This document shows, one piece after another, positions 9,288 to 19,366 of a stretch of 32,000 nucleotides of DNA. Both the position numbers and the translations under genes were made by a program. The first letter of the stretch is position 1. Each line of letters opens with the position of its first letter. The notes beneath the pieces were generated by a model that saw only the letters and a list, made by a program, of their open reading frames with translations, was not told the origin of the DNA and did no database searches. Source of the stretch: Halomicrobium mukohataei DSM 12286 (GTDB lineage: Archaea > Halobacteriota > Halobacteria > Halobacteriales > Haloarculaceae); the NCBI RefSeq assembly GCF_000023965.1, contig NC_013202.1, positions 2,370,001 to 2,402,000 on the forward strand, in the 5' to 3' direction.

Positions 9288-10186
9288 ATCTCGACGAACT
9301 CCAGTCAGTCCAGTCCCGCGAGCGCCAGACCGACAGCCTCCAGCAGCTGCGGGAGTCGTTCTACGCCGACGCGGGGGAGTTCATCCAGCAGCTCCGCGAG
9401 GAGCGCGACAGCGTGGCCGATCGGGCCGACGACCCCTTCGACGCCCCGGAAGTCAACCGCCTGACCGACGACATCAACACCGCCGAGTCGACGGTCGAAG
9501 CGATCTACGAGCGCCGCGTCGGCAAGATCGTCAAGATGGCGTCGCTGGCCGCCGCCGACATGCCGGCCGAAGAGGAGGGGCTGACCCGCGAGGAGCGGGA
9601 CCTCTTCGAGACGCTGGTTAGCGCCATCGAGAACAACCGCGATCACGTCTTCGACGTGCTCGCTGGCGACGTGACGCCGGACGCTGTCGAGGACGCGGGA
9701 GCCGACGAGAGCCCCACGGACGAGGTGTCGTCCGAGTCCGACGACGCCAAGCCGGAACCCGAGCCGGAGCCGCCCGCCGACCCCTCGCCGAGCGACGAGC
9801 CGACGACGATCGAAGCGGCCGACCTGATGGGCAGCGACGAGAGCGTCGACCTGCCGCCCGACGCGCCGCCGGACGGTCCGCCAGAGGGGGGTGCCAGCCG
9901 GGACGACCCGCTGGCCGGCGAGCAGTCGCCGGCCTCCGACGGCGGCACGGTACCCTCGCCCCCGTCCGACGACGCGGGGCCGACCTCGCCGGACGCGCCC
10001 GACACCGGCGACGAGCCGGCGACGCCGACGATCGAGCGCGCGACCGTCCGGATCACGGACGATGTCGGCGAGATCTTCGGGATCGACCAGCGCGAGTACG
10101 ACCTCTCGACCGACGATGTGGTCACGCTCCCCGAGCAAAACGCCGCGCCGCTGGTCGATCGGGACGCCGCCGAACGCCTCGACTGA
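9284..10186 (+). CDS. ginS: GINS complex subunit (Gins51-type) with a long acidic/proline-rich internal linker
   Basis: A helical A-domain (LQQLRESFYADAGEFIQQLREE...) is followed by a C-terminal B-domain (VRITDDVGEIFGIDQREYDLSTDDVVTLPEQNAAPLVDRDAA). It is translationally coupled to priS, as is known for archaeal Gins/PriS pairs. Confidence 0.85.
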   Translation: MNLDELQSVQSRERQTDSLQQLRESFYADAGEFIQQLREERDSVADRADDPFDAPEVNRLTDDINTAESTVEAIYERRVGKIVKMASLAAADMPAEEEGLTREERDLFETLVSAIENNRDHVFDVLAGDVTPDAVEDAGADESPTDEVSSESDDAKPEPEPEPPADPSPSDEPTTIEAADLMGSDESVDLPPDAPPDGPPEGGASRDDPLAGEQSPASDGGTVPSPPSDDAGPTSPDAPDTGDEPATPTIERATVRITDDVGEIFGIDQREYDLSTDDVVTLPEQNAAPLVDRDAAERLD

Positions 10187-11329: not shown

Positions 11330-11485
11330 GGGCGTACTATCGGCGGCGATCGAATAAACCCACGGCCAGACGACGTTTCACTCTCTGGGCGGTGGAGACA
11401 ACGGCCGCGCTGGGACGCCGCGAGTCTCAGACCTGTCGACGAAACGGACACAAGCTTGAGGTAGTGGTTTACCGTATCCGTAGCT

Positions 11486-11740
11486 ATGGCTGGATCTGGC
11501 GGCGAGCTGTCGGACGTTCCACATCCGCCGTTCCTGTTCGCCGGAATCAGGTGCGCACTGGAGATGATGCTCGTCGCGTCGCTGATACTGCTGCTTGGCT
11601 TGCCGGCCCAGAATCCGATCGTGCTCGCGGTCGTGGTGCTGCTCGCGTTCGTCGCGATGGTGGTCGTCCTGTTCTGGTGTCTCAACCAACAGATGGACCG
11701 CTGGATCAAACACGCACGGGGCAAGCCGACAGTTCAGTGA
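11486..11740 (+). CDS. hypothetical small membrane protein
   Basis: The 84-aa product has two long hydrophobic helices, an ATG start and GC3-rich codons. Confidence 0.5.
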   Translation: MAGSGGELSDVPHPPFLFAGIRCALEMMLVASLILLLGLPAQNPIVLAVVVLLAFVAMVVVLFWCLNQQMDRWIKHARGKPTVQ

Positions 11741-11807
11741 CGGGATCGCGCCGGGACCGTCCGACCAGTCACTAACCTTTTGAACGTCTCTCCAGTAGTA
11801 GTCGGCA

Positions 11808-12431
11808 ATGTCGACCAAGCGAGCGCTGGCCCAGCAACTCGGCGTGGTGGCAGGGTTCGACGATCCGCGAGCCCCGCTCGAACAGTATCGGACGCCGCCG
11901 GAGCTTGCGGCCCACCTGATCCACCTCGCCGACCTTCGGGGAGACATCGAAGATCGCACGATCGTCGACCTGGGCTGTGGGACCGGGATGCTGACGCTGG
12001 GCGCGGCGCTGCGTGGCCCCGAGCGAACCGTCGGGCTCGACGTCGATCCGGCACCGCTACAGACCGCTCGGGACAACGAGCGGAAGGTCGCGTCGGCCAC
12101 GTCGGTCTCCTGGGTCCGGGGCGACGCCGAGAACGCGCCGCTGCGACCGGATCGAGACGGGACGACGGTCGTGATGAATCCGCCGTTCGGGGCCCAGTCG
12201 GGCAACGAACACGCCGACCGGGCCTTCCTGGAGACGACGGCCGCGATCGCGGACGTTTCCTACTCGATTCACAACGAGGGCAGCCAGGAGTTCGTCGGCT
12301 CGTTTGCGGCGGACAACGGCGGCACCGTCACCGACTCCTACCAGACGGAGTTCGAGATCCCACACCAGTTCGACCACCACGAGGACGAGTCGCGAGCCGT
12401 CACCGCGGAAGTGTACCGGGTCGAGTGGTAG
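11808..12431 (+). CDS. METTL5/COG2263-like SAM-dependent methyltransferase (predicted RNA methylase)
   Basis: It has LEQYRTPPELAA, the SAM motif VDLGCGTGML, and the catalytic NPPFG. Confidence 0.85.
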   Translation: MSTKRALAQQLGVVAGFDDPRAPLEQYRTPPELAAHLIHLADLRGDIEDRTIVDLGCGTGMLTLGAALRGPERTVGLDVDPAPLQTARDNERKVASATSVSWVRGDAENAPLRPDRDGTTVVMNPPFGAQSGNEHADRAFLETTAAIADVSYSIHNEGSQEFVGSFAADNGGTVTDSYQTEFEIPHQFDHHEDESRAVTAEVYRVEW

Positions 12432-12439
12432 TCGCCGTT

Positions 12440-14122
12440 CTACGCCGCCTCGCGGGTCGCGATCGTAACTCGCGTCCCCTCGTCGCTCGCGAACACCTGC
12501 GAGCCGTTGCGCCGGAAGGTGAGCCCTCCAGCGGTTGTCGTCCGGTTCCGGCCGGGCACCGACGCGGTGGCGAGCGTACGGCCCTCTCTGGACACCGCGA
12601 AGGCGAACCCCCCGTCGGTCGGGACCAGCGTGACGTTCCGGCCGGCGACGACGGGGTCGGCTCGGCGCGGCTCGCTCGTGTAGCCACGCGTCCGCTCGTC
12701 GCCGGCCGGCCTGAGGTACACCTTGTAGACGCTGTCGTTGCCGGCCGGCCGCCAGCCCGTGCGGTTGACGTGGACGTTTCGCCGCCAGCCGACGCCGCCG
12801 ACCTCGACGGTCGCGAAACCGCGGTTCCGGAGCTGGGATTCGAGGACGACCGTCTGCCAGACGTGGCGTCGCTGGCTCGTGACGACGACGCCGCTGGTGT
12901 TGATCGCCGTCGGATCGTCGACGAACGGTAGGGAGACGCTCCGGACGTAGCCGTCGGGCACGTCTTCGCCGTAGCTGACGGTGTAGTCTCGGACTTCGAC
13001 CGTCGGCTGTGGGGCCGGCGAGTCGCCGATCGGCGCGACGTTGTACGGGATCGCCGCGCCGCTCAGTCCGAGCAAGAGGACGAGGACGACGGCCAGCCCC
13101 ACAGTGTGGACCCCTGCCGTCGATTCGGGCAGCCGGCGCTCGACGAGCCAGTCGAGTCGCGACCCGGCCCGCTCGTCGCCGTCCCAGATGCCGAGGATCA
13201 CGACCGCCGCCAGCACGAAGACGACCGCCGCGCCGAGCCACCGAAACAGGACGAATCGGCCGTTTCCTTCCGGGACGTACAGCGCCCACAGCCCCTGGAA
13301 CTCCGCGAACACGAGGAGCCCGAACCACAGCCGCGTCGGGTCCGGCCAGCGGTCCCGGTAGTACAGCAGGCCGAACCCGAGCAAGATGCCAGCGAAGAGC
13401 CCGATGGCGTGGCCCTGGATCGCGATGCTGGCCCACCACGGCGTGATGACGCGCGGACGCGGCACGGCGACGACGCGGGGGGTCTGGACCGCGACGACGA
13501 GGAATCCGAGGACCTGATCGGCCAGCAAGGCCAGCAGTGCCGTCAGCGGGCGCTGGACGAGTGCGAAGCCCGCGATGGCGAAGACGACTCCGGAGAACCC
13601 CACGACCGGTCCCAGTGCGAACAGCGACGTGAACAGCCCGACGACGAGCGCCCCGGCGGGAACGATCAGGATCCGGACGAACGGGTTCGTCAGGGCCGAT
13701 CCGAACGAGTGAGCGCCTCGCTTTCGGGGGTAGTGGCCCCAGGCGTACTCGGCGACGGAGCCGAACGCCGCCGTCGCCACGAGGTTGCCCGTCACGTGCC
13801 CGAGACTGGAGTGTGTGAACGCCGCCGTCACCATGCCCAGCGGGTAGCGATACGACCAGGATCGAAACGGGATCACCAGCGGATCTCTGGGGTCCTCGAT
13901 GCCGCCCTGGACGAACAGGTAGACGAGCGCGACCGCGCCGATTGTGAGCGCGGTGCCCCACGGAACGCCGAGCAACAGACGCCGACGGAGCGCGCCGAGT
14001 CGCCGATCCGTGCGGTCGCTGGCGACGAGCGCGACCCCCAGCGAGACCGCGGCGGCGAGGAGGACGGTCAGCGTCCTGAGGGGCAGCCACGACGGAACCG
14101 CATCCATCGGGCCCGGTAGCAT
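12440..14122 (-). CDS. rhomboid family intramembrane serine protease with a large C-terminal extension
   Basis: It has FTHSSLGHVTGN and the catalytic GFSGVVFA motif, a downstream His-containing helix, at least 7 TM helices, and an extra domain of about 250 aa. Confidence 0.85.
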   Translation of the reverse strand: MLPGPMDAVPSWLPLRTLTVLLAAAVSLGVALVASDRTDRRLGALRRRLLLGVPWGTALTIGAVALVYLFVQGGIEDPRDPLVIPFRSWSYRYPLGMVTAAFTHSSLGHVTGNLVATAAFGSVAEYAWGHYPRKRGAHSFGSALTNPFVRILIVPAGALVVGLFTSLFALGPVVGFSGVVFAIAGFALVQRPLTALLALLADQVLGFLVVAVQTPRVVAVPRPRVITPWWASIAIQGHAIGLFAGILLGFGLLYYRDRWPDPTRLWFGLLVFAEFQGLWALYVPEGNGRFVLFRWLGAAVVFVLAAVVILGIWDGDERAGSRLDWLVERRLPESTAGVHTVGLAVVLVLLLGLSGAAIPYNVAPIGDSPAPQPTVEVRDYTVSYGEDVPDGYVRSVSLPFVDDPTAINTSGVVVTSQRRHVWQTVVLESQLRNRGFATVEVGGVGWRRNVHVNRTGWRPAGNDSVYKVYLRPAGDERTRGYTSEPRRADPVVAGRNVTLVPTDGGFAFAVSREGRTLATASVPGRNRTTTAGGLTFRRNGSQVFASDEGTRVTIATREAA

Positions 14123-14176
14123 GTCCCGATCATGGAACGGCTGTGGCTTATCCTTGGCGGCGACGGGTCGGACTCA

Positions 14177-14256
14177 TACGGACGGTTGTAGGCGTTTACC
14201 CAGTCGACCGCACGACGGTGTGCGGTCGATCTGGTAACGACCTACAACTTTCCGTA
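14177..14256. repeat. 80-nt palindromic element, subfamily 1 (copy D)
   Basis: The outer arms are TACGGACGGTTGTAG / CTACAACTTTCCGTA and the inner arms are GTCGACCGCAC / GTGCGGTCGA plus TTACC / GGTAA. It is flanked by the direct triplets TCA (14174-14176) and TCA (14257-14259). Confidence 0.85.
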
Positions 14257-14284
14257 TCAGAAATCGGGTATCACTCTGTTACCT

Positions 14285-14308
14285 GGTTCGGAACCGAACC
14301 TATATATC
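14285..14308 (+). promoter_or_regulatory. perfect inverted repeat GGTTCGG-AA-CCGAACC abutting a TATATAT box upstream of hxlR
   Basis: The 7-bp arms with a 2-bp spacer occupy 14285-14300. They are followed immediately by TATATATC (14301-14308), which is about 38 nt upstream of the hxlR ATG. Confidence 0.55.
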
Positions 14309-14342
14309 TCGCTGGCGACAACGAGAGGGTAAGAGCCAACAG

Positions 14343-14699
14343 ATGTCATCCACGTTTTCCCCGGAGCCAGACGAGACCTGCCAGGTCGTCGAGTCCTTCG
14401 ACCTGATCGGATCGAAGTGGCGACTGGCGGTGCTGTACGAACTGCTCGACGGCGAACAGCGGTTCAACGAACTCAAGCGAGAGACCGGCACCAGTTCCCG
14501 CACGCTCTCGCGGGTCCTCGACGACCTGCAGGACCGCGCCTTCGTCGACCGTCGCGTCGAGGAGGCTGCACCGGTCGCGACCTACTACACGCTGACCGAG
14601 AAGGGCGAGGCGCTCGCACCGGTGTTCGACGAGATCGGCGACTGGGCCGACGAGTGGCTCGACGACGCCGTCGCGACGCCGGAGATCGAGACGCAGTGA
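14343..14699 (+). CDS. HxlR family winged-helix transcriptional regulator
   Basis: The stretch IGSKWRLAVLYELLDGEQRFNELKRETGTSSRTLSRVLDDLQDRAFVDRR is a typical HxlR/MarR-like wHTH. Confidence 0.9.
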   Translation: MSSTFSPEPDETCQVVESFDLIGSKWRLAVLYELLDGEQRFNELKRETGTSSRTLSRVLDDLQDRAFVDRRVEEAAPVATYYTLTEKGEALAPVFDEIGDWADEWLDDAVATPEIETQ

Positions 14700-14777
14700 C
14701 GCGGATCGTGTAGCGGTTTCCCGATAGTCGTCTCTCCCGTGGCGACGCTCGCCAGCACGCACCTTCGGTAATGCGTA
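14700..14777. repeat. 78-nt diverged palindromic element, subfamily 1 (copy G)
   Basis: It aligns along its length with copy B1 (..GGAT.C.TGTAGC.GTTTCCCG.T...CGTGGCGACG.T.GCC...GCACC...CGTA). It starts directly after the hxlR TGA (14697-14699) and is followed by TGA (14778-14780). The arms are partly decayed. Confidence 0.65.
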
Positions 14778-14837
14778 TGACACGAGTACGGTCCGACAGC
14801 GTAGCTTTTTCCACCTGCAAGTACCACTGTCGACTCG

Positions 14838-15167
14838 ATGGGAGTCCGGCCACCGGCAGACGACGACGGCGACGAACCGGACGCGATCGAGTTCGGTATC
14901 GCCGCGCTCGACGGAACACTGAGCGACGCCGATATCGAGTACCCGACCGACAAACAGACGCTCCGGTCCGAGATCGGGCACCGCGAGGTCCCTTTCGACG
15001 CCACGGGCCACTCGATCACGGTCGCGGAGGCGCTCGAACAGGTACCGAAGACGAGCTTCGAGAACGAGCAGGAACTGCTCAACACCCTCCACCCGGTGTT
15101 CGAGGCCCGACGCGAAGCCACGAGCAACAGTCTCCTCTCGCAGCTTCGGGCGCTGGTCCCCTTCTAG
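14838..15167 (+). CDS. conserved-looking acidic hypothetical protein
   Basis: The 109-aa product has acidic composition and good codon bias. A CTTTTTCC box lies about 30 nt upstream. I cannot name a family with confidence. Confidence 0.6.
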   Translation: MGVRPPADDDGDEPDAIEFGIAALDGTLSDADIEYPTDKQTLRSEIGHREVPFDATGHSITVAEALEQVPKTSFENEQELLNTLHPVFEARREATSNSLLSQLRALVPF

Positions 15168-16198
15168 GGACGACTGGTCGAACTGGCCCGCTCCCCGTCC
15201 GATTCTCCCTCCGCGCTGGGCTCCGTGCCGTCGCCGACGGCGTCGGCCGCGGTCGATTCGTTACCGACCTGGCGCGCGATCTCGCTCAGCCGTCGGGTCT
15301 GCTCGCGATTCAGTGCGACGATCATGTCCGAGAGGACGCCGAACATGAGCAACTGGATGCCAAAGAGCAGCCCCGAGGCGGCGACGAGCGCGATCACCTC
15401 GTGAGAGACGCCGACGACGAACCACTCGTAGGCGACGTAGATCGCCAGCACGACCCCGACGAGTGCGCTCGCCACGCCGACGCTCCCGAAGTAGAACAGC
15501 GGATTGTTGGTCTTTGCCATCCGGTACAGCGTCAGGATGATCACCGCACCGTCGCTGAACGGATCCAGATTCGTCTCCGAGTCGTCGGGTCGGGCCTGGT
15601 AGGTGATCGGCACCACCGTCGTCGAGACCCCCTGTTTGACGCACTCGACGGCCATCTCCGTCTCGATGCCGAACCCGTCTGCGGTCAGGTCGAACTGCCT
15701 GACCGACTCCAGCGTGAACGCCCGGTAGCCAGAGAGGATGTCCGTCAGATCTCGGCCGTGAATGACCGAGAACGCCGTGTTGATGATCCCGTTGCCGACC
15801 TGATTCAATCGGGTCATCGCACCGGCTTCCATATCGGCAAAGCGGTTCCCGACGACGTGCTCTGCGCGTCCGTCGAACAGCGGTTCCAGCAGCCGGTCGG
15901 CCTCGTCGGGCCGGTAGGTGGCGTCGCCGTCGAGCATGAGGACGTAGGGCTGTTCGACGTGGCGATTCAGGGCCTCGCGGACCGCTTGCCCCTTGCCCGA
16001 TCCCCGTCCGGTGCCCGACTGCTCGACGACCCTCGCGCCGGCCTCGGCTGCGAGTTCCCGCGTGCCGTCGTCGGAACCGCCGTCGATCACGAGCACGTGT
16101 TCGAACCCCTGTCCGACGAACGAGGCGACGACATCGCCGATCGTCGCCGCTTCGTTGTACGTCGGGACGAGAACGCACACGTCGTCTCGATCGGCCAT
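15164..16198 (-). CDS. GT2 family glycosyltransferase (dolichyl-phosphate sugar synthase-like) with C-terminal TM helices
   Basis: It has VLVPTYNEAATIGDVV...VIDGGSDDGT...MLDGDATY (the GT-A DxD region) and two C-terminal hydrophobic helices. A TATATATTT box lies about 30 nt upstream. Confidence 0.88.
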   Translation of the reverse strand: MADRDDVCVLVPTYNEAATIGDVVASFVGQGFEHVLVIDGGSDDGTRELAAEAGARVVEQSGTGRGSGKGQAVREALNRHVEQPYVLMLDGDATYRPDEADRLLEPLFDGRAEHVVGNRFADMEAGAMTRLNQVGNGIINTAFSVIHGRDLTDILSGYRAFTLESVRQFDLTADGFGIETEMAVECVKQGVSTTVVPITYQARPDDSETNLDPFSDGAVIILTLYRMAKTNNPLFYFGSVGVASALVGVVLAIYVAYEWFVVGVSHEVIALVAASGLLFGIQLLMFGVLSDMIVALNREQTRRLSEIARQVGNESTAADAVGDGTEPSAEGESDGERASSTSRP

Positions 16199-16241
16199 TG
16201 TTGACCAGTCGACTGCGCGGACTCAAATATATACTGGTGGG

Positions 16242-17792
16242 CTATCCGGCACGGGGCAACTCGATCACGACGGCGGTGCCGCCCCGGTCGCTCTCTTCGA
16301 TCCAGACCGAACCGCCGTAGGAGTCGACCATCACGTCCACGAAGTACAGCCCGAACCCGGTGCCACTCGACCCGTTTCGCCGGGCACCGCGTTCGAACAC
16401 CGACGGTCGCCGCTCGGGCGGGATCCCCGGACCGTCGTCCGCGATTCGGACCCGTATCGTCTCGGCGGCCTCGGTCGCGGTCACCTCGATCGACGGCGAC
16501 GATTCGGTGTGCTCGACGGCGTTGAGCATGACGTTGGCGAACACGTCGTCGAGGAGTTCGTCGCCAGCGACGGTCACGGCCGGCACGTCGATCGACACCG
16601 AGCAGTGCTGGTCCGCGCTCGTCGGACGGCTCGACGCCGCTTCGAGCATCGCTCGCAGATCGACCGGCTCCGGGTCTGTCAGACCGTCTTCGGACAGTGT
16701 CGACAGCACCGAGCGGACCTTCTGGGTCAGCTCGACGATGTCGTCGCTCCACTCCAGGATCGTCTGTGCGTGGTCGTTGAGTTCCCCGTCGAGGTCGGCT
16801 TCGAGTCGCTCGGCCCGCGCCCGAACGACGTTCATCCCGTTGAGAATGTCGTGTCGGAGGATCCCGTTGAAGAAGTCCATCTGTTCTTTCCTGTTTTGCA
16901 GGTCGGTGATGTCGAGCCCCTCCGCGACGATCTCCGAGACGGCTCCGTCGTCGTACACCGGCCGGACCGTGACGGCCGTCTTGATGCGACTGCCGTCGGC
17001 CCCGACGTGTGTGCCCTCGAACTCGACGGTCTCGCCGCTCTCGGCCCGCTCGATCGCGTCGCGGCACTTCGCACGCTGTTCGTCGTCGTGGTTCCACCAG
17101 GGCGTCTCCGGGAAGGGATGGCCACGCACGTCGTCGACGTCGACCCCGGCGAAGGAAAGCGCCGTCTCGTTTGCACGCAGCAACGTTCCGTCCGGTTTGA
17201 GGATCCCGACGAAGACGTTCGGCGAGTCGAACGTCGCTTCGAGGAGTCGCTCGTTGCGGTCCCGCAGCGACGCGATCTGCTCCCGTTCCAGTTCCGACTC
17301 GACCCACCGACGAAGCGTGTCGAGGAGCACTCCCTGCCAGGGATCCAGCGTCGACCTCGGCTCCGACGGATCCCCGAAACAGAGCGTTCCGTAGGTCTCG
17401 CTGTCGACTTCGATCGGGACGCCGACGTACGTCTCCAGACCCCACCTGTCGTAGGCCGGATCGTCCGGTGCGCTCTCACTGACATCGAGAATCGTGTACA
17501 GATCACCGTCGGACAGCGTGTGTCGGCAGTACGTCTCGGAGAGTGGCGACGTGTCGCCGACGGCGTCGGCCGCGTTTTCGCCGGCCGCGACGGCGATCTC
17601 GTACCTGTCGTCGGTGACGGCCGAGAGATATCCGTTCGGGTATCCGAGGTGTTCACACCCGACATTGAGCACGCGCCCGATGCGGTCTTCGACAGTGCCG
17701 TCTCCGTCGGCCATCGCCGACGTGAGGTCCTGTAGCGCTTCGAGGTGACGCGTCGACGCGTCGGCCGTGTCGTCACCGCCCTCGGGGTCCAT
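16242..17792 (-). CDS. sensor histidine kinase with GAF and PAS domains
   Basis: An N-terminal GAF-like region and a PAS region are followed by a HisKA-like H-box (FFNGILRHDILNGMNVV) and HATPase_c motifs (NAVEH, DDGPGIP, GTGFGLY). I preferred the ATG at 17792 (MDPEGG) over the GTG at 17813 used by the ORF track. Confidence 0.88.
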   Translation of the reverse strand: MDPEGGDDTADASTRHLEALQDLTSAMADGDGTVEDRIGRVLNVGCEHLGYPNGYLSAVTDDRYEIAVAAGENAADAVGDTSPLSETYCRHTLSDGDLYTILDVSESAPDDPAYDRWGLETYVGVPIEVDSETYGTLCFGDPSEPRSTLDPWQGVLLDTLRRWVESELEREQIASLRDRNERLLEATFDSPNVFVGILKPDGTLLRANETALSFAGVDVDDVRGHPFPETPWWNHDDEQRAKCRDAIERAESGETVEFEGTHVGADGSRIKTAVTVRPVYDDGAVSEIVAEGLDITDLQNRKEQMDFFNGILRHDILNGMNVVRARAERLEADLDGELNDHAQTILEWSDDIVELTQKVRSVLSTLSEDGLTDPEPVDLRAMLEAASSRPTSADQHCSVSIDVPAVTVAGDELLDDVFANVMLNAVEHTESSPSIEVTATEAAETIRVRIADDGPGIPPERRPSVFERGARRNGSSGTGFGLYFVDVMVDSYGGSVWIEESDRGGTAVVIELPRAG

Positions 17793-17839
17793 GCCAGCTA
17801 GTGGGCACGACACCGCTTCAATCCTCTGGCGGCCGAGCC

Positions 17840-18272
17840 GGTAGTGTTCAGATAAGAGATCGAGAGTAGCATCGTCGAGGCACCGAAAGCCCTCGTGCAG
17901 TTGCGGTCCCGCGGCTCGCTGCGCGCGCTCCGCGTGCTTGCCGAGAGGGACTCTCCGAGTCCCTCTGGCCGTGCGAACGGGCGCTTTGCGCCCGTGAGCA
18001 GACTTTGCCGGGGTTCCCGCAAGGGCCGGCCGGTGGACCCGGCCGGCTATAACGTGACGGCTCCGCCGTCACGCAGCACTCGCCCTTTCATCCGCCAAGT
18101 TTCAGACGGTGAACCAGCCGATTCCTGGTGGATGAAAGGGCGAGGTGCGGTCGGCGGTTCTGCGGCGGCACTATCGAACGCAGTGAAGATATCCGCCACA
18201 GAACCGCCGAGCGTGCCGAGGGCTTTCGGTGTCTATATGTCAGTCAGTGCTGCTGCTTATCTGAACACCGCC
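17840..18272. mobile_element. 433-bp non-coding MITE-like element: 17-bp imperfect TIRs, 8-bp target-site duplication, highly structured interior
   Basis: The left TIR is GGTAGTGTTCAGATAAG (17840-17856). The reverse complement of the right TIR is GGCGGTGTTCAGATAAG (18256-18272), a 15/17 match with 13 contiguous. The direct repeats GCCGAGCC at 17832-17839 and 18273-18280 abut both ends. No plausible ORF is present, since the internal ORFs are Arg/Ser/Pro-rich. Confidence 0.7.
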
Positions 18273-18319
18273 GCCGAGCCCTGGCCACCGCGGTCGTCAC
18301 GAACGCGCGGCCGACGGCG

Positions 18320-19366
18320 TCACCAGGTGCCGTGGAAGGTGTCGAAGGCGAGTTCCTCCAGGTCCTCCTCGCCGATTGCGATGCGGTACTCCTGGGGCGT
18401 CAGCATCGGCTTCTTGAACTGCGGGCCGTCGTCGGTCGTGATCCGCGGGCACCCCGTGTTGACGTAGGCGTCCATCCCGAAGTTCGTCAGTCGATCCGGC
18501 GTCACCTCGTCCATCGTGATGAGGTAGGCGTCGTCGTTGTTCTCGACGATCTCGGTCGCCTGGTCCCAGCGACCCTGTCCGATCTTCGTACAGAAGATGA
18601 CGCCCCACCGCTCGGCGTCCATCGCCTTGTGGACCGAGGCGTACCGCTGTTTCATGAACTTCTCCGTGTCGGCGACGTGGACGGCGTTGTTGACCGGATC
18701 GGCGATGACGACCTTCTTGTCGGGGTGTTCCATCGCCAGCCCGAGCGGGTGGAACTTGCCACCGCCGACGTAGAGGATCTGGTCGGCGTCGACCTCGGCG
18801 CTGGCGTAGTTGCACCCGAGCACCTGTCCCTCGTGGGTCAGTCGCTCGTCGCCCTTGCGGGTGTGGACCTCGTAGTCGCGTTCTTCGAGCCAGCCGCGCA
18901 TCTCGTCGAACTTGTTCATGTGCTGGGCCGTCGTCACGAGCCCGACCTCGGGGTCCTCGTCGGGAGCGGGAAGCTCCGATTCGAGGGCCTGCTCCATGAT
19001 CGGGAACACGTCGACGTTCGAGAACAGCGGCACGTAGATGATCTTGTCCGACTCCTTCATCGGGGAGTGGCCGAAGTGAACGAACACGTCGGTCCGGCGC
19101 ATCAGGTACGTGTCCAGGTCGCAGGCACCGTAACAGGGCTGGCCCGAGATCATCACCTGCGTGTCGTCTGGCAGTTCGTCCCGAAGGTCGTCGGCGACGG
19201 CTGGTCCGCGGCGCTTCAGCCCTTCCGGGAACTGGAGGCCGACGGTCTCTGCGTCGCGGTCGGCGACTTCCTCGACGATGCGGTCGAGTTCGTAGTCCCA
19301 CTCGCGGTCGTGCTTGAGAGCGAGCCCAGTCGCCCGGAGATCCCCCTCGCTGCGGTCCTGACTCAT
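18320..19366 (-). CDS. dph2: diphthamide synthesis radical-SAM enzyme Dph2 (2-(3-amino-3-carboxypropyl)histidine synthase)
   Basis: The product has Dph1/Dph2-family sequence throughout (GLQFPEGLKRRGP...SGQPCYGACD...FVHFGHSPM...GCNYASA...VNTGCPRI). I moved the start to MSQDRSEG (19366) because the TTGTTATAC box lies inside the first codons of the longer track ORF. Confidence 0.9.
   Translation of the reverse strand: MSQDRSEGDLRATGLALKHDREWDYELDRIVEEVADRDAETVGLQFPEGLKRRGPAVADDLRDELPDDTQVMISGQPCYGACDLDTYLMRRTDVFVHFGHSPMKESDKIIYVPLFSNVDVFPIMEQALESELPAPDEDPEVGLVTTAQHMNKFDEMRGWLEERDYEVHTRKGDERLTHEGQVLGCNYASAEVDADQILYVGGGKFHPLGLAMEHPDKKVVIADPVNNAVHVADTEKFMKQRYASVHKAMDAERWGVIFCTKIGQGRWDQATEIVENNDDAYLITMDEVTPDRLTNFGMDAYVNTGCPRITTDDGPQFKKPMLTPQEYRIAIGEEDLEELAFDTFHGTW

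Follow-up and report, generated by a model that had tools for sequence, protein, structure and literature searches.

A probable IS6-type miniature element inserted between dph2 and a histidine kinase gene in Halomicrobium mukohataei

The spacer between dph2, a diphthamide synthesis gene, and a neighbouring histidine kinase gene of Halomicrobium mukohataei DSM 12286 very probably carries one copy of a non-autonomous mobile element, a miniature inverted-repeat transposable element (MITE), whose ends are of the haloarchaeal IS6-family (ISH14/ISH29) type. The element occupies positions 17840-18272 of the 32,000-nucleotide stretch analysed here (assembly GCF_000023965.1, contig NC_013202.1, positions 2,370,001 to 2,402,000; hereafter the window). 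Comparison with sister strains provides direct evidence, at the level of aligned sequence, for an insertion with an 8-bp target site duplication (TSD), confined to the type lineage of H. mukohataei. A candidate IS6-type MITE had been proposed at this place in an earlier annotation made by a model from the letters of the window (the original prediction), and that reading is now supported by the match to ISH29 ends, by empty sites, by further copies and by the lack of a transposase gene.

Results

The element is 433 bp long and its terminal inverted repeats (TIRs) match at 15 of 17 positions, including a perfect 13-nt core that is found at these two places only in the whole window (GGYRGTGTTCAGATAAG ends). 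Both the TIRs, with 13 contiguous matching bases, and the 8-mer GCCGAGCC that abuts each of them in direct orientation had been described in the original prediction, and direct reading together with a repeat finder recovered them exactly. The same prediction had remarked on an oversized kinase-dph2 spacer of about 500 bp; the gap measures 527 bp between 17792 and 18320, and the insertion accounts for its size. Taken alone the 8-mer is not rare (7 occurrences in the window, 3.6 expected); what gives it weight is where it lies, together with the comparisons with other loci. A second inverted repeat, absent from the earlier annotation, was found inside the TIRs: RCACCGAAAGCCCTCG, at 17878-17895 and 18217-18234, offset by 38 nt at both ends.

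The segment had also been called free of open reading frames (ORFs) and of any transposase gene. The first description does not strictly hold, as four mechanical ORFs of 50-190 aa lie within or overlap the element; none of them has a Pfam match, and the Pfam scan of these overlapping ORFs found neither a transposase nor any other Pfam domain inside the element. At 433 bp it is too short for the 211-aa IS6 transposase. Rfam 15 gave no match at gathering score across the window (best sub-threshold E in the region 0.29, searched to E <= 10), and the window holds no tRNA or tmRNA gene.

Empty sites speak for mobility. In Halomicrobium katesii (L095) and Halomicrobium sp. LC1Hm (L096) the dph2-kinase spacer is 86 bp long, uninterrupted, and contains one target 8-mer; 86 bp is the length of the window spacer minus the element and minus one copy of the 8-mer. 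The H. katesii junction reads ...GGTGGCCAG GGCTCGGC CGCCAGAGGATTG..., where GGCTCGGC is the reverse complement of GCCGAGCC, and the aligned H. mukohataei junction reads ...GGTGGCCAG GGCTCGGC (433-bp element) GGCTCGGC CGCCAGAGGATTG.... The flanks of H. katesii are identical to those of the window save for a few positions, with the element and the second 8-mer absent. The target 8-mer of LC1Hm is GTCTCGGC. Two other strains, GCA_012726095.1 and HM KBTZ05, have a spacer of 125 bp in which the target region is likewise uninterrupted. As judged from these alignments, the element is shown to have inserted into a pre-existing 86-bp spacer in the H. mukohataei lineage with duplication of GCCGAGCC, and the event can be dated as recent, since the type-strain lineage has the element and H. 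katesii, LC1Hm and the two other strains lack it. The original prediction had read the TIRs and direct 8-mers as the signature of a transposition event and had named orthologous kinase-dph2 spacers as the place where an empty site might be seen; the single 8-mers of H. katesii and LC1Hm bear out both.

The 125-bp spacers of GCA_012726095.1 and HM KBTZ05 (L097, L098) hold an extra 39-nt segment with a T-run (GGCTTTTTGCC) just after dph2, at about 1390-1430. This is an indel nearer dph2, unrelated to the MITE, and H. mukohataei, H. katesii and LC1Hm are without it. More distant Dph2 relatives, a metagenome population at 92% identity and HArc-gm2 at 89%, are uninformative as empty sites because the gene order downstream of dph2 differs and there is no homologous spacer. 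The 24-mer of the empty site, which is present in H. katesii, had no match in metagenome contigs, and joined-flank queries across the fetched loci gave no empty sites. For two copies on scaffold 2 of H. katesii no orthologous region was found on the H. mukohataei plasmids.

The ends point to a particular group of insertion sequences (IS). ISH29 on pNRC200 (L016; annotated as 'IS6-like element ISH29 family transposase') terminates in GGTAGTGTTCAGATAAG and GGCAGTGTTCAGATAAG and has a TSD of 8 bp, GGCCTATC; the window TIRs are identical to these two ends at 17/17 and 16/17 positions. ISH15 (L015) carries the same 13-nt core, GTGTTCAGATAAG, at its end. In the literature ISH29 is given as 697 bp long, with a TIR match of 16/17, ends in GG and a TSD of 8 bp, and the ends of the IS6 family are characterised by a GG start, a G at position 7 and conservation of the first 14-18 bp (PMC6807381). 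The termini of the element have these features, and the window copy has an 8-bp duplication, as expected for the ISH14/ISH29-type group. The IS6-type character of the ends, which the original prediction had proposed, is therefore upheld by a direct comparison with haloarchaeal elements, in which ends and TSD length agree with ISH29 and the core with ISH15. Beyond the 17 terminal bases the element is unrelated to the two ISH29-type ends compared, and its subterminal repeat is found in neither the ISH29 nor the ISH15 ends.

Whether a full-length IS with the same ends resides in the same genome was a further point of the original prediction, and here the outcome is mixed: degraded ISH29-like ends were found in H. 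katesii (L011) and on a plasmid of H. mukohataei (L017), and no intact IS of this kind was read in the window's genome. The H. katesii locus L011 has a second, different end, GGTAGTGTTCAGATACGCTGATTCC..., adjoined by a fragment that translates to IQIDDEQYWLYAAVDPDT; matches to this fragment occur in 68 haloarchaeal plasmid records, of which many bear an annotation as IS6-family, ISH15 or ISH29 transposase. ISH29-like transposases are widespread in haloarchaea (2889 proteins at E <= 1e-40), and no IS6 transposase of H. mukohataei was named in a search through the 120 best ISH29 homologues and one cluster. A published table for CP001688, the H. mukohataei chromosome, does list two IS6-family elements, ISHmu2 and ISHmu9 (PMC6807381).

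A complete IS6-type element was seen on one metagenome contig (L050, 339-1040). Its ends are somewhat different (TIRs GGCCGTGTTAAAATAAG and GGTCGTGTTAACTTAG), its transposase shares 57% identity with the ISH29 one, its TSD is the 8-mer GGTACGTG, and it sits 0-1 nt from the end of a MITE copy of the present family, an adjacency which suggests that IS6-type ends attract one another.

Copies elsewhere were sought with the exact pattern GTGTTCAGATAAG-N19-23-CACCGAAAG. One scan of the GTDB species-representative genomes returned nine loci, all in Halomicrobium katesii DSM 19301, and the same pattern matched 69 stretches in metagenomes; pairing of ends gave 43 elements, 40 of them non-identical. The expectation that the element is multi-copy, also part of the original prediction, thus holds for H. 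katesii and for the metagenomes. The scan of viral contigs with the end pattern gave no match, and a search of the plasmid collection with the whole element returned three short matches to a nested hairpin module described below, none of them in Haloarcula, and no copy of the family.

Paired ends in H. katesii delimit elements of 74-403 bp. Perfect 8-bp TSDs, each different, flank the copies at L008 (GCCTGCGG), L010 (AGGTGCGC) and L014 (GGATGGGG), and L011 shows an 8-bp flank, CCCGTCGG, after a boundary shift of 2 nt. Among the 40 non-identical elements the flanks match at 8/8 positions in 10, at 7/8 in 8 and at 6/8 in 5. Matches of at least 7/8 are thus seen in 18 of 40 elements, compared with none of 1560 control comparisons in which the right flank was displaced by 20-59 nt; 0.45% of these controls reach 6/8. 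Because the combination of TIR and abutting 8-bp repeat recurs in independent copies with different 8-mers, these comparisons rule out chance as its explanation. Together with the empty sites they also speak against a single syntenic locus that was merely sampled repeatedly, and against relatives having the element at this site with displaced or missing 8-mers.

One contig assembled from SRR017869 reads, with an identical dph2 (L002), ends 29 nt inside the MITE (1979-2007). Such a break is the usual sign of a repeat and hints at further copies in that genome. Three other copies (L024 4653-4944, L039 3391-3637 and L073 5549-5878) have a perfect subterminal motif together with outer repeats that are off at 3-5 of 13 positions (GTGTTTAGTTACG, GTGTTTAATTAAA and GTGTTTCGTGAAG), and their flanks match poorly, at 3-6 of 8 positions by eye on the printed flanks. 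They could be old copies in decay, or else members of a sub-family adapted to a different IS6-type transposase.

A set of eight collinear copies, each 320-324 bp long, can be aligned with the window copy, giving a canonical size of about 321 bp. By this alignment the window copy is a 433-bp variant of the canonical element that has gained two two-hairpin insertions. Across the aligned copies hardly any change is seen in the TIRs or in the subterminal CACCGAAAGCCCTCG motifs; the 21-24 nt spacers between TIR and motif have a mean pairwise identity of 0.44, where the subterminal motif has 0.92 and shuffled spacers have 0.33. Two loose classes of spacer, AGA... and C..., can be told apart; each may lie next to either end of the core, which is thus found both ways round with respect to the termini. 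A role for the variable spacers as target guides was considered and ruled out, identical spacers going with different TSDs in H. katesii.

Insertion 1 is also present in the metagenomic copy L086, at 96% identity, and insertion 2 in the metagenomic copies L046, L038, L080 and L052; being common to some metagenomic copies, the two insertions mark sub-families and are not private mutations. Insertion 1 is a 62-nt module made of a variable first stem with compensatory changes followed by a conserved GCGAACGGGCGC-ttt-GCGCCCGTGAGCAGA. The module is also inserted in the 3' end of a Halostagnicola tnpB gene, with a duplication of at most 1 nt, and the homologous tnpB ends of Halorussus and Haloterrigena are without it. 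It occurs in nine haloarchaeal plasmid records, at one place in each. Insertion 2, of 51 nt, had no match in the plasmid collection.

In several metagenomic copies (L086 at about 9515-9609, L032, L036/L037/L063, L080 and L083) the subterminal motif is split by an insert of about 48 nt (ACTCGCTTCGCTCGACTTTCGAAG...GTGAGAC). A direct repeat of CACCGAAAG borders the insert, which for this reason looks like another mini-element that landed in the subterminal motif.

The whole element is predicted to fold with unusual stability, its minimum free energy on the plus strand being -273 kcal/mol where shuffles give -182.5 +/- 5.9 (z = -15.4); for the minus strand z is -12.2. In the consensus fold 102 pairs are distributed over the TIR stem, the subterminal stem and three long hairpins. 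Changes on both sides of a pair were counted in 21 of the 102 pairs, compared with a shuffle mean of 10.7 (none of 500 shuffles reached 21) and with 3-8 in slid controls. Helices with a Watson-Crick consensus contain G.T in 17 cases and A.C in 15, with no strand asymmetry, and this balance does not support a strand-specific RNA structure.

The insertion point lies 39 nt past the dph2 stop codon and 39 nt ahead of the kinase ATG (Table 1). With the insertion 39 nt upstream of its ATG, the kinase would keep its proximal promoter region. The products of both flanking genes are identical to H. mukohataei entries (Table 1), and assembly GCA_009217585.1 (L001) has the same locus with an element 100% identical to the window copy.

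Gene order beyond dph2 (window about 11330-18320) differs from that of the nearest relatives outside the species group (L018, L094). There dph2 is followed by a methyltransferase (+), a rhomboid (-), HxlR (+; L018 only), a 108/109-aa protein (+) and a glycosyltransferase (-); the order in the window is dph2, MITE, kinase, glycosyltransferase (+), 109-aa protein (-), HxlR (-), rhomboid (+) and methyltransferase (-). Relative to these relatives the window has an inversion with one breakpoint in the dph2 3' spacer. Since H. katesii combines the inverted order with an empty site, this inversion is older than the insertion of the MITE. No kinase was found in HArc-gm2 within the 10 kb read downstream of dph2.

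Table 1. Parts of the element, flanking genes and further sites of the nested module (window coordinates unless a locus is named)
Feature	Position	Strand	Basis or remark
GAF-PAS-HATPase histidine kinase	16242..17792	-	Pfam scan; ATG 39 nt from left TSD; product identical to WP_015763441.1 / ACV48599.1
Left TSD copy GCCGAGCC	17832..17839		Abuts TIR; single copy in empty sites of H. katesii and LC1Hm
Left TIR GGTAGTGTTCAGATAAG	17840..17856	+	17/17 with one ISH29 end; conserved in all family copies
Variable spacer, A type	17857..17877		Between TIR and subterminal repeat
Left subterminal inverted repeat AGGCACCGAAAGCCCTCG	17878..17895	+	94% complementary to 18217-18234; hardly varies among 9 aligned copies
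Canonical core, hairpin H1 5' part (TGCAGTTGCGG...GCGTGCTTG)	17896..17940		Alignment with 8 copies of ~321 bp; consensus fold
Insertion 1, 62-nt two-hairpin module	17941..18002		Gap in all 8 other aligned sequences
Canonical core, hairpin H1 3' part (CTTTGCCGGGGTTCCCGCAA)	18003..18022		Same alignment with 8 copies
Insertion 2, 51-nt two-hairpin module (GCCGGCCGG/CCGGCCGGC and CGTGACGGC/GCCGTCACG)	18023..18073		Gap in 8 other aligned sequences; hairpins from repeat finder
Hairpin F, long imperfect palindrome (CTCGCCCTTTCATCCGCC...GGTGGATGAAAGGGCGAG)	18079..18144		Consensus helix 8, 98% of cells paired
Hairpin G (GTGCGGTCGGCGGTTCTGCGGCGG...CCGCCACAGAACCGCCGAGCGTGC)	18145..18216		Helices 9 and 10; 12/29 pairs change both sides between copies
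Right subterminal inverted repeat (CGAGGGCTTTCGGTGTCT)	18217..18234	-	Repeat finder and copy alignment
Variable spacer, B type	18235..18255		Spacer comparison between copies
Right TIR CTTATCTGAACACCGCC, reverse complement GGCGGTGTTCAGATAAG	18256..18272	-	16/17 with other ISH29 end GGCAGTGTTCAGATAAG
Right TSD copy GCCGAGCC	18273..18280		Abuts TIR
dph2, diphthamide synthesis	18320..19366	-	PF01866, E = 1e-84; stop codon 39 nt from right TSD; product identical to WP_015763442.1 / ACV48600.1
62-nt module, other sites	L003 3001-3087; L092 ~1501-1633; L004 3001-3034; L005 3001-3044		

Discussion

How a MITE with ISH29-type ends might reach the dph2-kinase spacer can be proposed in outline. An ISH29-like DDE transposase would bind the TIRs and mobilise the element in trans; by analogy with bacterial IS26, a copy-in cointegrate might then form between genome copies or between replicons, and homologous recombination between the two element copies could leave a simple insertion with an 8-bp duplication. 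Such a cointegrate route is plausible between the genome copies of a polyploid, recombination-proficient haloarchaeon, and by the same analogy it would also account for the third of copies without matching flanks. Poorly matching flanks likewise fit intramolecular replicative events or recombination between copies. For IS26 itself, copy-in cointegrate formation is documented, with homologous recombination afterwards giving rise to single insertions that have an 8-bp TSD (PMC6807381). Less probably, the many clean, 8-bp-flanked insertions of a 0.3-kb element mean that the archaeal ISH14/ISH29 group is independent of IS26-style cointegrate formation followed by host recombination.

Several points weigh against reading the segment as an IS6-type MITE. 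The window's own species offers one copy, seen in the 32-kb window and in the overlapping locus L001, and what was read of its genome gave no intact IS having exactly these ends, the candidate helper being deduced from remnants, from a published table and from the wide spread of ISH29-like transposases. Among the 40 paired elements, 14 have flanks that match at 3 or fewer of 8 bases. The hairpins are kept by compensatory changes, which would not be expected of a purely neutral transposon remnant and which the MITE account leaves unexplained. Cointegrate formation has been demonstrated for bacterial members alone and not for the archaeal group, and Harmer and Hall argue that membership of the IS6/IS26 family proper may not extend to the archaeal 'IS6' elements (both PMC6807381).

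The compensatory changes lead to the alternative that survives best. Here too the element is mobile; its core, from subterminal repeat to subterminal repeat, would be a selected RNA or DNA structure with a function for the cell or for the element, and the IS6-type ends a mere vehicle. We consider this unlikely. The fold is extremely stable (z = -15), the 21 double changes in 102 pairs exceed every shuffle and every slid control, the subterminal 15-mer is conserved at 0.92 when the neighbouring spacer, at 0.44, is near the shuffled value of 0.33, and some cores keep the motif though their TIRs carry 3-5 changes. That last comparison of motif with TIR is biased, as the copies with decayed TIRs were chosen by motif conservation. 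The near balance of G.T and A.C (17 and 15) speaks against a strand-specific RNA, no Rfam family matches, and, with respect to the two spacer types, the core is found either way round. Compensatory change can, besides, be produced without selection by template switching or arm-to-arm gene conversion in DNA palindromes. A more specific form of the idea, that the three-hairpin core closed by CACCGAAAGCCCTCG stems is kept by selection as a mobile, structured DNA or RNA module riding on ISH29-type ends and serving as a preferred landing pad for smaller hairpin elements, is in our estimation an outside prospect of similar weight.

Several haloarchaeal IS families give 8-bp duplications, among them the IS1595/ISH4 group, ISH6 and the IS5/ISH1 group, and a MITE of one of these could resemble an IS6 element superficially. 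Ends of the GGnnnTG type are shared with IS1 too (PMC6807381). An origin of the element from such another family is very improbable in the light of the 17/17 and 16/17 identity to the ISH29 ends, the 13-nt core shared with ISH15, and the IS6 remnant with this end, for whose terminal stretch the 68 matching plasmid records include IS6-annotated elements. In the single IS1595-family element that was examined the ends are unrelated (CGCTCATCTGTAGAAG...).

Slighter still are the chances of a derivative of an IS200/IS605 (TnpB) element, either a palindrome-associated transposable element (PATE) or a piece of omega-RNA. The idea arises from an alignment of window 17912-18002 with the 3' end of the Halostagnicola tnpB (E = 6e-5). 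The aligned piece is, however, an insertion of about 60 nt in that tnpB, absent from the tnpB ends of Halorussus and Haloterrigena and from the eight MITE copies of about 321 bp. The sections of the Haloquadratum walsbyi study that deal with IS200/IS605 elements and PATEs describe them as having neither TIRs nor target duplication (PMC3119063), whereas the present element has both. A TnpB-related origin is accordingly rejected for the element as a whole and remains of use solely to describe the nested 62-nt module.

Weakest of all, and with next to no chance of being right, is a fixed, non-mobile intergenic feature such as a regulatory spacer or a structured RNA gene whose repeats arose by chance: the 8-mer is indeed not rare in this GC-rich window (7 against 3.6 expected), but four related strains are without the segment and have an uninterrupted site (with a single 8-mer in H. 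katesii and LC1Hm), dozens of copies elsewhere have their own 8-bp duplications, and the empty sites refute it.

An IS6-type MITE is a kind of element already known, haloarchaea included. In the ISfinder sense a MITE has the two ends of an IS without an ORF between them, and two are filed there under IS6, MITEBth2 and MITEHarch3, of 227 and 336 bp (PMC6807381, PMC7986276); the remark in the original prediction that MITEs of this family are rarely described agrees with these two entries. Like the window element, MITEHarch3 ('Harch' for Haloarcula) and MITEBth2 (Bacillus thuringiensis) have no transposase, and MITEHarch3 comes from the same family as the window genome, the Haloarculaceae. The present element family looks distinct and lineage-restricted, which is suggested by the exact scan having matched only H. 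katesii and by the lack of a family copy in the plasmid collection; the distinction is not proven. No mention of a Halomicrobium MITE or of the name 'MITEHmu' was found in the literature searched.

With IS of the ISH29, ISH15 and ISH14 type the element shares its 17-bp TIRs (17/17 and 16/17 for ISH29) and the 8-bp duplication. ISH29 differs in being 697 bp long with a 211-aa DDE transposase, compared with 433 bp (canonically about 321), no transposase and an unrelated interior in the element.

Some MITEs of Haloquadratum walsbyi are, in those sections of Dyall-Smith et al. (2011) that treat them, related to their parent transposon only in the terminal inverted-repeat bases, as is the case here (PMC3119063). 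The same sections describe SMR-A, of about 110 bp, and the terminal-only PATEs, of 52 bp, as small palindromic elements without target duplication, and report that SMR-A inserts into the near-terminal palindromes of IS605-type elements (PMC3119063). The nested 62-nt module resembles them in its placement, inside a MITE hairpin and at the 3' end of a tnpB gene, and in its duplication of 1 nt at most. The Haloquadratum elements belong to another genus and have other sequences, and no IS6-derived MITE was found in those sections (PMC3119063).

Bacterial parallels lie further away. Correia/NEMIS elements of Neisseria, ERIC, RUP and BOX are, like the present element, short, non-coding, multi-copy and intergenic, with TIRs, a TSD and long stem-loops. 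They differ in being bacterial, in being mobilised by other transposase families and in having TA or other short duplications, and for some of them a role at the RNA level is documented.

The finding does not overturn current understanding, and its interest is for specialists, who gain a tractable substrate for archaeal IS6-type transposases and an unusually structured, modular MITE. To the short list of IS6-family MITEs it adds a family with an empty site, dozens of copies and defined ends. The family is also a marker of genome rearrangement and of variation between strains, both in Halomicrobium and in related hypersaline metagenome populations. Small, abundant and non-autonomous, with known ends, it offers a handle for assaying transposition by archaeal 'IS6' elements, whose membership in the family is disputed.

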